From an uncultured cyanobacterium (lineage in GTDB: Bacteria > Cyanobacteriota > Cyanobacteriia > Pseudanabaenales > Pseudanabaenaceae): a stretch of 64,000 nucleotides of DNA. Positions 55,551-57,323 of the stretch are shown piece after piece (within the stretch, counting starts at the first letter, position 1; each line of letters opens with the position of its first letter). The DNA is taken from the NCBI GenBank assembly GCA_963703315.1, contig OY969811.1:3328001-3392000 (forward strand), written 5' to 3'. Below the pieces are notes generated by a model, which did not search any database, was not told where the DNA came from, and saw nothing but the letters and a program-made list of their open reading frames with translations. A program made the position numbers and the translations under genes.

Positions 55551-55846
55551 TTTTTTATAATTACTACAGTTGAAATTTTTGGGGATTTAGAGTTTTTTAT
55601 TGGCGCGGCTTTGCCTTGACAATAAAAATAGGTTCTTGATTTTACTTCGTGCCTTTTTTATAGCAAAGCAAAACCCAAGAAGCGAGTGGCGGCGCGGAGC
55701 TCCGCCACTCGCTTCTTGGGTTTTAGTATAAGCAAAAATTTTTTGTTATAGATGAAGCTCAAAGTACTTCCTAATCTATGACTGTGGGTTTTTGTAATAG
55801 CGATTGCTATAATTAAAATCTCAAATTTTTTAAGTAAGGGCAAGTA

Positions 55847-56140
55847 ATGGCGACTTCTCATAGGACAAAACAGGTAAATCTTCGTTTTCCTCTGCCTTTA
55901 TTGAGCCAAATCAAATCTCAAGCTGATGCTAAACAACAGGCGATCGCTGATTGGATTTTAGCAGTGGTCAGTCGTGAGTTTACCCCAGAACCAATAGCAG
56001 AAAAGCTGTCAGAGAAACCATCGGAACCTACTCCTTTTGTTTTGCATCCTGAACTTCTGGCATATATTGAGACTTGTCTAGCGCCGCTACAGGGACAGAT
56101 TGGTGAACTGAGGACACAACTGGGGGAGTCCAAAGCCTGA
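55847..56140 (+). CDS. Ribbon-helix-helix/CopG-like protein (0-frame product), ending LGESKA*
   Basis: TKQVNLRFP..LL..IK..A......IADWIL pattern; short coiled-coil C-terminus. Confidence 0.7.
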   Translation: MATSHRTKQVNLRFPLPLLSQIKSQADAKQQAIADWILAVVSREFTPEPIAEKLSEKPSEPTPFVLHPELLAYIETCLAPLQGQIGELRTQLGESKA

Positions 56141-56165
56141 TTGATAGTGGGAAATCCAGTCAGGC
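56110..56165 (+). promoter_or_regulatory. Candidate -1 programmed ribosomal frameshift signal
   Basis: GAGGA (56110-14), CTG GGG GAG (56120-28), spacer TCCAAA, stem GCCTGATTG...CAGTCAGGC (56135-56165). Confidence 0.6.
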
Positions 56166-57006
56166 AGATGTATCTGTCCCTAATCAAAATGATGATCATG
56201 TTGATGCTAATACTTCAAAAGGTTTTTGGTCATCGGCAAATACGAAGCCACTGTTTAATTCATTAGCAGGATTTGCTCTAGAAGTAGGCGATCGCCTGCT
56301 GATCAATGGCGAAGAAGTGATATTTAAAGGGTGGGTCGATCAATCCCAGACAGCGATCGAAGTAAAAGTGATCGCTGATGACGCAGTGCAGGTCAAGCAA
56401 GTTCATGCGAAAGAAATCAAAAGTCTGTCGCGATCGCCGCATATTGCTGATAATTCGTCATCACCAAACCAAACCACCAAACAAGAAGCGAATCAGTCTG
56501 ACCGTACAAAAGTAAATACGCCAGTAAATACACCAGTAAGTGCAACCGACAATGAAGAATCTCCAGTAGCAAAGGCTGAGCAAGAACTTCCAGAAGTAAC
56601 CACGCAGGAAAGCGGCGATCATCCAAAAACGGAGGAAGATGCTGTAAATAGTTCAGATAGCTTGGAAGATACTGCTCAAATAGAAGAATCTCCTGAAATC
56701 CCCCCAGAGCCAGAATACAATGCTTGGGAAGTATGGACTTATTTAGAACGGCAGCGTTTGAAAACACTCAAGTTAATCAATACATTCCATGCGGAATGGG
56801 AAGCAAATCGATTTGTCCGTGAAGCTGAACGGAGTACTCCTCCAAATCTCAGGATACATTACGAAATTCGTCCAGTTTTACTCGATGAAGCTGAGTTAAA
56901 TGGTTCTGCTCCAAAAACTGAAAATTCTCATACATCTCCTGATCAGCAACCTGATGCTGAGGTAGAAGATTATGCTGATGCGATCGATGTGGAGATCATC
57001 AGCTAA
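56122..57006 (+). CDS. -1 frame extension of the RHH ORF (KOW/SH3-like segment, acidic linker, small C-terminal domain); ORF track starts it at GTG 56317
   Basis: Frame is open from 56107 to 57006 with no ATG/GTG/TTG before 56317; LEVGDRLLINGEEVIFKGW straddles that GTG. Confidence 0.6.
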   Translation, partial: GGVQSLIDSGKSSQADVSVPNQNDDHVDANTSKGFWSSANTKPLFNSLAGFALEVGDRLLINGEEVIFKGWVDQSQTAIEVKVIADDAVQVKQVHAKEIKSLSRSPHIADNSSSPNQTTKQEANQSDRTKVNTPVNTPVSATDNEESPVAKAEQELPEVTTQESGDHPKTEEDAVNSSDSLEDTAQIEESPEIPPEPEYNAWEVWTYLERQRLKTLKLINTFHAEWEANRFVREAERSTPPNLRIHYEIRPVLLDEAELNGSAPKTENSHTSPDQQPDAEVEDYADAIDVEIIS

Positions 57007-57212
57007 AAAGAGAGTTGTGCTGCAACTCTCTTTTCGGTTTTAAAAAATGGCATAGCCATTTTTTAAAACCGTTACTGGGTTTGTTTTTTAATTCACGAAA
57101 GTGTGACAACACTTTCGTGAATTGGTGTTATGTCCTGATGCACTTGGCAACAGCTATACTGTAAAATTTCTAAAGTAATCTTAATTTATTGAAACTTATT
57201 TAGAGAAAAATC

Positions 57213-57323
57213 ATGGGAGAACTAGTTAACGCAATGGTCTTATCGATGGTACTTATTCCTGTCGGTATTGCCTTCGGATACTTCTTACTAAAGTTGCAAG
57301 GCGAAGAAAAAGAAGAAGCATAA
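57213..57323 (+). CDS. petM: Cytochrome b6f complex subunit PetM
   Basis: MGELVNAMVLSMVLIPVGIAFGYFLLKLQGEEKEEA*: single TM with the G(F/Y)xLLKxQG signature; below the ORF-track cut-off. Confidence 0.9.
   Translation: MGELVNAMVLSMVLIPVGIAFGYFLLKLQGEEKEEA

Follow-up and report, generated by a model that had tools for sequence, protein, structure and literature searches.

At positions 55847 to 57006 of the window, by which we mean the whole 64,000-nucleotide stretch of DNA that was analyzed, two overlapping reading frames lie on the plus strand. The first, ORF A (55847..56140, +), encodes a 97-aa protein with an RHH-like N-terminus (approximately residues 1-45, pI 10.3) and a C-terminal heptad segment, and its last codons, CTG GGG GAG TCC AAA GCC TGA, spell Leu-Gly-Glu-Ser-Lys-Ala-stop. 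Within them lies a putative slippery heptamer, G_GGG_GAG (56122..56128, +), followed by a 6-nt spacer (56129..56134, +) and then a stem-loop (56135..56165, +; arms 56135-56143 and 56157-56165), a candidate 3′ stimulator that carries the 0-frame TGA in its 5′ arm. An SD-like GAGGA (56110..56114, +), a candidate optional 5′ element, ends 7 nt before the heptamer. The -1 frame is uninterrupted from 56107 to 57006 (299 codons plus stop), and its first ATG, GTG or TTG is codon 70 (GTG, 56317); from the heptamer onward (56122..57006, +) it comprises 294 codons plus stop, an acidic (pI 4.4) C-terminal extension that would bring the predicted long isoform to 92 + 294 = 386 aa. The extension contains a conserved SH3/KOW-like beta-barrel (56242..56436, +), which starts 5′ of the first GTG and is missing in several other genera; a family-specific beta-beta-alpha-beta domain that we call WEVW (56707..56892, +; AF2 pLDDT 88.6); and a conserved C-terminal (D)AIDVE motif (56977..57006, +), which is found in other genera too and whose I-D-V-E is invariant in our alignment A1 of 36.

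The gene is single-copy: tblastn found no paralogue in its own genome, and three loose patterns revealed no second cassette there (35 candidate sites, all chance-like except this locus). Its neighbors are a menB-like gene, petM and plsY; among the 48 genus loci, as judged from short flanks only, 46 have petM next to it and 35 have menB. In the window petM (36 aa, 57213-57323) lies directly downstream on the same strand and is too short to appear in the ORF list. A candidate promoter, the extended -10-like box TGnTATAAT (55805..55813, +), was read from the sequence and is seen 5′ of most of the genus loci inspected; a -35/-10 scan did not report it. The gene is flanked by palindromic intergenic repeats (55663-55750 and 57043-57135), of which the genome has dozens of copies, and the 3′ one scores terminator-like.

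The names that homologues carry in databases put the organism in Pseudanabaena. The -1 product is present in all 47 other Pseudanabaena genomes and in 13 genomes of seven other genera, that is, in 60 of the 70 genomes of the order, own genome aside. A profile of the C-terminal domain found no match in the remaining 10 (six of them at least 90% complete) or in any of 139 genomes of other families. The initial annotation proposed a programmed frame break rather than a damaged single ORF, and the homologues agree: the break lies at the same place in 60 of the 61 genomes with the gene (48/48 of the genus, 12/13 others), although the sampled genomes are related and such counts overstate independence. 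Sequencing error, which had been raised for the length of the G run, is excluded because the same five G occur in 48/48 genus genomes and because, in three DNA runs of two studies (X1 may be the source sample), contigs that cross the site show no insertion or deletion. In the one RNA run examined, X9, no reads fall on the junction.

By genome, 53 (the 48 of the genus among them) have G_GGG_GAG as the heptamer and seven have G_GGA_AAR; by locus, it is in register at 59 of 61 (53 G_GGG_GAG, three G_GGA_AAA and three G_GGA_AAG). The base 5′ of the Gly codon is G in 59/59 loci, though the residue it belongs to may be Leu, Met, Val or Arg, while third positions near the heptamer vary freely. Among 369 occurrences of Leu-Gly-Glu in long ORFs of this genome, none is spelled with G_GGG_GAG. 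Two loci depart from the pattern. The first (L053, genome G080) is a natural in-frame fusion, a single 515-codon frame that runs from an RHH-like start through the same C-terminal domain to an additional HTH-like end, an architecture shared by database protein P0126 (Pse7367_1958). It has Val-Gly-Glu-Leu-Ala approximately where the junction would fall, with Gly written as GGT, which is not slippery; this is possibly a lost slip site or else a chance heptad. Three relatives of the fusion protein (P0127, P0129, P0130) lack the RHH start as called and may be split forms. In the second (L055, genome G084) the G_GGA_AAG cassette is intact, but the -1 frame is broken further downstream in a run of 11 C; this may reflect an assembly error, or else a second break that is prone to slippage.

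The -1 frame is under purifying coding selection 5′ of its first start codon. In a 26-codon block that starts 25 codons before the window's GTG, the fraction of non-consensus bases at the three codon positions is 0.08/0.045/0.315 (44 motif-matching loci of 59), which bears out the earlier suggestion that this stretch is coding. No ATG, GTG or TTG precedes the conserved SH3 block in 34 of those 44 loci, and the first standard -1 start wanders between codons 2 and 102 among 48 loci; the -1 ORF overlaps the end of the upstream ORF and has no conserved start of its own. Immediately past the site, the first -1 codon is Val or Ile in 59/59 loci, whereas the overlapping 0-frame codon encodes Ser, Cys, Phe or Leu or, in three loci (L044, L047, L050), is a stop directly behind the heptamer.

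Across the family the hairpin follows the heptamer by 4-6 nt. Taken alone, the window's hairpin (-13.6 kcal/mol) is modest: its z is -1.65, and 12 of 200 shuffles are equally good. The case therefore rests on conservation. The 60 nt after the heptamer gave a negative z in 18/18 loci tested (-0.9 to -9.3). Each of 53 distinct sequences keeps the five core pairs, a full pairing that is partly by construction because the script picked the best partner; among them are double changes from G-C to C-G in six, C-G to U-A in two and A-U to G-C in two. The 3′ arm of the stem shifts by 3 or 12 nt with the frame kept. In an ungapped alignment 82% of cells pair, compared with 17-47% in slid controls; six of its 30 rows are out of register, and we therefore did not count six further double changes at pair 26-44. 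Of 33 Nostocaceae genes, 27 have the stem beginning at one and the same position, and these genes add more double changes. The 3′ arm occupies one codon register in Nostocaceae and another in Pseudanabaena, implying that the stem is no by-product of protein conservation. In all, double changes occur in at least five lineages. Rfam has no family over the cassette in the eight loci searched. The short RHH ORF, slip run and 3′ stem-loop that the initial annotation assembled into one architecture are thus both present and conserved in the family.

The SD-like element that it included fared less well: it is present in the window, but only 32 of 59 loci have GAGG, and the element is therefore at most an optional enhancer. 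Among Nostocaceae genes, 12 of 31 have an SD-like match of -5 kcal/mol or better. The window's spacing of 7 nt is no longer than the shortest in the 9-14 nt range given for SD-like -1 stimulators (PMC5009743). Over the 48 genus loci the Arg codon at the element is AGG in 30 and AGA in 12 and is never CGN; genome-wide, AGG and AGA account for 5% and 14% of Arg codons.

The same arrangement recurs in other cyanobacterial RHH genes. A 20-nt pattern matched 32 of 301 genomes of the phylum (48 matches, versus 4 for the reversed control), and the 30 loci that we fetched comprised 11 cassette genes, one CRISPR-like spacer and 18 chance-like matches. In each of the 11, an RHH-coiled-coil ORF ends in Leu-Gly-Glu/Lys-x-x-Ala-stop, a hairpin is present and the -1 frame is open. 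Adding the 3′ arm to the pattern gave at least 120 loci in GTDB genomes; 11 of the 80 titled ones are non-cyanobacterial and were set aside, leaving 69 (two from unclassified bacteria and some from the gene's own family). Among these 69 matches listed only three of the eight allowed heptamers occur (GGGGGAA 36, GGGAAAA 21, GGGGGAG 12), and none of the four slip-incompatible heptamers that the pattern allows does. The Gly and Glu/Lys codons change together, two bases at once (G_GGG_GAR to or from G_GGA_AAR), and so stay slip-compatible. The -1 tails in the matches listed range from 25 to 287 codons, most Nostocales tails having only 25-40. The 100 upstream proteins used fall into at least 28 clusters at 50% identity.

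In a search meant to be less circular, a protein profile gave 127 matches in 32 of 41 Nostocaceae genomes; we fetched 70 loci for the best of these 127 and rescored them with the RHH part alone. Gly-Glu/Lys is the ending of 34 of the resulting 72 RHH ORFs; 31 of the 34 use G_GGG_GAR or G_GGA_AAA, and the remaining three stop 11-13 residues past the RHH. Shared descent contributes to these counts because the profile was built from pattern hits. Of the 38 without that ending we inspected nine: G_GGG_GAR with a later stop occurs in two, A_AAA_AAA in one and G_GAA_AAA in another at the corresponding position, and no such heptamer in the remaining five. A quick tree requires the site to have changed 10 times between G-type and A-type, with at least six of these changes forced by well-supported branches; it covers 102 of 133 proteins and 92 columns, with many forks unresolved and the Glu/Lys column left in.

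Outside Pseudanabaenaceae, some neighbors of cassette genes are integrases, tRNAs, and NikA-like, TnpB-like and methylase genes, and approximately half have no Pfam match; the integrase-type neighbors suggest a mobile origin of the cassette genes. The CRISPR-like array mentioned above (L069; G269:C17, approximately 72230-72310) has a spacer matching the slip site and hairpin start of a Microcoleus-type cassette gene, which suggests that genes of this type ride on targeted mobile elements. Viral contigs gave three pattern matches, one of them a cassette gene. On one IMG/VR contig (L295) a cassette RHH gene lies head-to-head with a repressor ORF judged HTH-like by eye, in a phage-switch-like arrangement. 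A recurring unannotated protein family is encoded divergently from many Nostocales cassette genes (L092-L171). As for a conserved divergent HTH partner, tblastn gave no match and the upstream genes vary, and we dropped this candidate. Four Nostocaceae RHH proteins (L234, L236, L237, L278) carry a long in-frame extension with an HTH-like end and no terminal cassette. One Nostoc-type ORF had no tblastn match among plasmids, and a PCC 7120 plasmid region found by DNA similarity holds no cassette.

From the arrangement of these conserved elements, we judge with a probability of roughly 0.85 that programmed -1 ribosomal frameshifting yields the 97-aa and 386-aa isoforms. A single mRNA, translated from the ATG at 55847, would give both proteins: a ribosome with tRNA-Gly(UCC) and tRNA-Glu(UUC) on GGG GAG would pause at the hairpin 6 nt ahead, and a fraction would slip to GGG GGA, where Gly re-pairs on the same codon and Glu pairs with one U-G, and continue to the end of the long protein. 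The remaining ribosomes would stop five codons later and release the short one. The X_XXY_YYZ rule is strictly obeyed in the seven G_GGA_AAR orthologues, whereas G_GGG_GAG (53 loci, window included) requires the one U-G pair. The initial annotation held that GAG re-pairs poorly in the -1 frame and favored slippage in the P site only. We disagree: the genome's tRNAs include Gly GCC and UCC only, Glu UUC only, and Lys UUU and CUU, with tRNA-Gly(CCC) absent, and tRNA-Glu(UUC) on GGA pairs with one U-G. Because GAG can re-pair, tandem slippage is at least as likely, and the junction may then be Leu-Gly-Glu-Val, not Leu-Gly-Gly-Val. A central U-G between tRNA-Glu and GGA is also the explanation offered for phage GGGGGAA, which annotation assigns to roughly a thousand putative SEA-PHAGES frameshifts (PMC10885494); the exact string GGGGGAG does not occur in that paper. 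G_GGA_AAG is highly shift-prone in E. coli (PMC5009743), and its rarity among the 69 matches listed would fit the presence of tRNA-Lys(CUU).

The serious rival is translational coupling, in which two separate proteins are made: GGGGGAG acts as an SD, and ribosomes terminating on ORF A open the hairpin and re-initiate at the CTG that overlaps the stop (C-TGA). It has to be taken seriously because the heptamer pairs with the anti-SD at -8.4 kcal/mol and lies 8 nt before that CTG, a geometry typical of coupling; moreover, of 59 family loci 57 have CTG as that codon and two have TTG, L052 and L054 have TTG GTG at that place, and the stem would hide the start until unfolded. We nevertheless consider it improbable. 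ATG or GTG appears at that codon in 0/59 family loci, and the idea is further weakened by relatives in the protein-derived set with CTA (twice), CCG or, in L257 and L261, CTC there, each with a compensated stem. The heptamers also vary in the wrong way for an SD: G_GGA_AAA (-4.2) and A_AAA_AAA are poor or no SDs, while GGGAGAR, a good one (-7.3), is never used among the 69 matches listed. Re-initiation at the CTG likewise leaves unaccounted for the Val/Ile conserved 5′ of it, the three loci whose 0-frame stop falls right behind the heptamer, and the length of most Nostocales tails, only 25-40 codons.

Transcriptional slippage, in which RNA polymerase would insert one G into the G5 run so that the edited transcript encodes the fusion, appears more doubtful still. 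There is a homopolymer at the site, and one added base would join the frames, but productive polymerase-slippage sites are mostly longer A/T runs, and here the run is five G only, falling to just three or four in the G_GGA_AAR orthologues. The constraint instead tracks codon phase and tRNA re-pairing, and the hairpin lies 3′, at ribosome distance. Finally, the reading of the locus as a sequencing error, a pseudogene or a chance overlap of unrelated ORFs, to which gene callers lend some color by annotating the downstream part as a hypothetical protein of its own whose start varies, is already refuted by conservation of the break throughout the genus and in 12 of 13 other genomes, by the independent contigs and by purifying selection on the -1 frame.

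Returning to the products expected from frameshifting, ORF A is probably an Arc/CopG-type RHH protein with a coiled coil, according to sequence matches that are concordant and all below curated cut-offs: CopG_antitoxin in Pfam (E 0.0026, below cut-off), Arc-like in PHROG (E 0.0019), Mnt/Arc with profile A3 (E 0.04-0.05), Arc/RHH_1 clusters in the Atlas (0.90/0.88) and, for one orthologue, YlcI/YnfO_N (29.2 against a cut-off of 30, E 7e-7). Its predicted homodimer, run without controls, scored 0.31 against a mark of 0.42, a result given no weight either way. We identified no operator in the upstream regions of the loci, and found no DNA target or tail partner.

The -1 extension matches no Pfam family. 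AF2 predicts the SH3/KOW-like barrel with pLDDT 80-92 (residues 51-110 of the frame), and in a model of the full -1 frame only this part folded well; its best Foldseek match is T. maritima NusG (E 0.026), with none at E<=0.001. The tail also contains acidic linkers. The 60-residue WEVW domain has 20 matches among 1.8 billion representatives, the weakest of which looks spurious, and occurs in 11 of 11 sampled genomes of the family and in 0 of 139 other genomes of the class. In a fold search its best PDB match had Z 5.5, with none >=8; it is weakly similar to small phage proteins (best E 0.04), and all Atlas matches were under 0.8, SPOR-like being a lead only. The two isoforms should co-assemble because both share the RHH and coiled coil. 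By analogy with gpG/gpGT, the most likely role is thus a DNA-bound mixed-isoform oligomer: mainly short chains, with a set minority that would bear the long acidic arm (SH3/KOW barrel, WEVW domain and IDVE tail) and use it to recruit a partner, although we put forward recruitment itself only tentatively.

The gene would work like two well-known classes of frameshift and is a member of neither. It resembles the phage G/GT pairs (lambda gpG/gpGT; GGGGGAA in SEA-PHAGES) in its slip sites, G_GGA_AAG and G_GGG_GAA, in the -1 direction and in its predicted pair of a short and a C-terminally extended product with a common N-terminal binding domain (PMC5009743, PMC10885494); in lambda the G:GT ratio is 30:1 (PMC5009743). 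Here, in contrast, the product is an RHH-like regulator encoded in single copy among housekeeping genes (menB-like, petM and plsY) rather than between major tail and tape-measure genes, there are no tail genes, and the 3′ stem is conserved. IS3-family orfA/orfAB likewise fuses a DNA-binding upstream ORF to a longer ORF by a -1 shift stimulated by an SD and a 3′ structure (PMC5009743). Unlike IS3, this gene has one copy per genome in stable synteny, an RHH rather than an HTH and tails that differ by lineage, and its -1 ORF matches no DDE transposase in Pfam. E. coli dnaX and copA and the alpha-carboxysome csoS2 also make two isoforms from one cellular gene with a heptamer and 3′ stem, csoS2 without a 5′ SD (PMC5009743), but in those the shift truncates the protein whereas here it would extend it; the site here is also G-rich and read by tRNA-Glu, and the cassette recurs in dozens of gene lineages. 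ORF A shares with the Arc/Mnt/CopG repressors a basic N-terminal strand with alternating hydrophobics and two helices, in weak matches, but falls below curated cut-offs and has a coiled coil and the putative recoding cassette behind its RHH. Our literature searches, whose coverage left out most subscription papers, found no description of the gene or cassette, and the text that we searched in the GeneTack paper (PMC3711429) names no such cluster; its supplementary file 1 may list one. The natural allelic series G_GGG_GAG, G_GGG_GAA, G_GGA_AAA, G_GGA_AAG and A_AAA_AAA would allow mid-codon U-G re-pairing by tRNA-Glu, which so far rests on phage annotations (PMC10885494), to be probed.

The cassette ends many cyanobacterial RHH genes that are now annotated as two hypothetical ORFs or whose tail is missed. 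To our knowledge, few chromosomal, non-mobile bacterial genes use -1 frameshifting; this one would extend a regulator, and it is kept in every sampled Pseudanabaena genome. We think it reasonably probable, with less assurance than for frameshifting at this locus, that a portable recoding cassette gives short and long isoforms in dozens of cyanobacterial DNA-binding lineages, that any domain encoded in the -1 frame can thereby be delivered to DNA at a set sub-stoichiometric ratio, and that Pseudanabaena has fixed one such gene, probably mobile-derived, as a single-copy core chromosomal regulator. If this is true, the portable cassette would rank, transposases and phage tails aside, among the largest groups of programmed frameshifts that still lack annotation.
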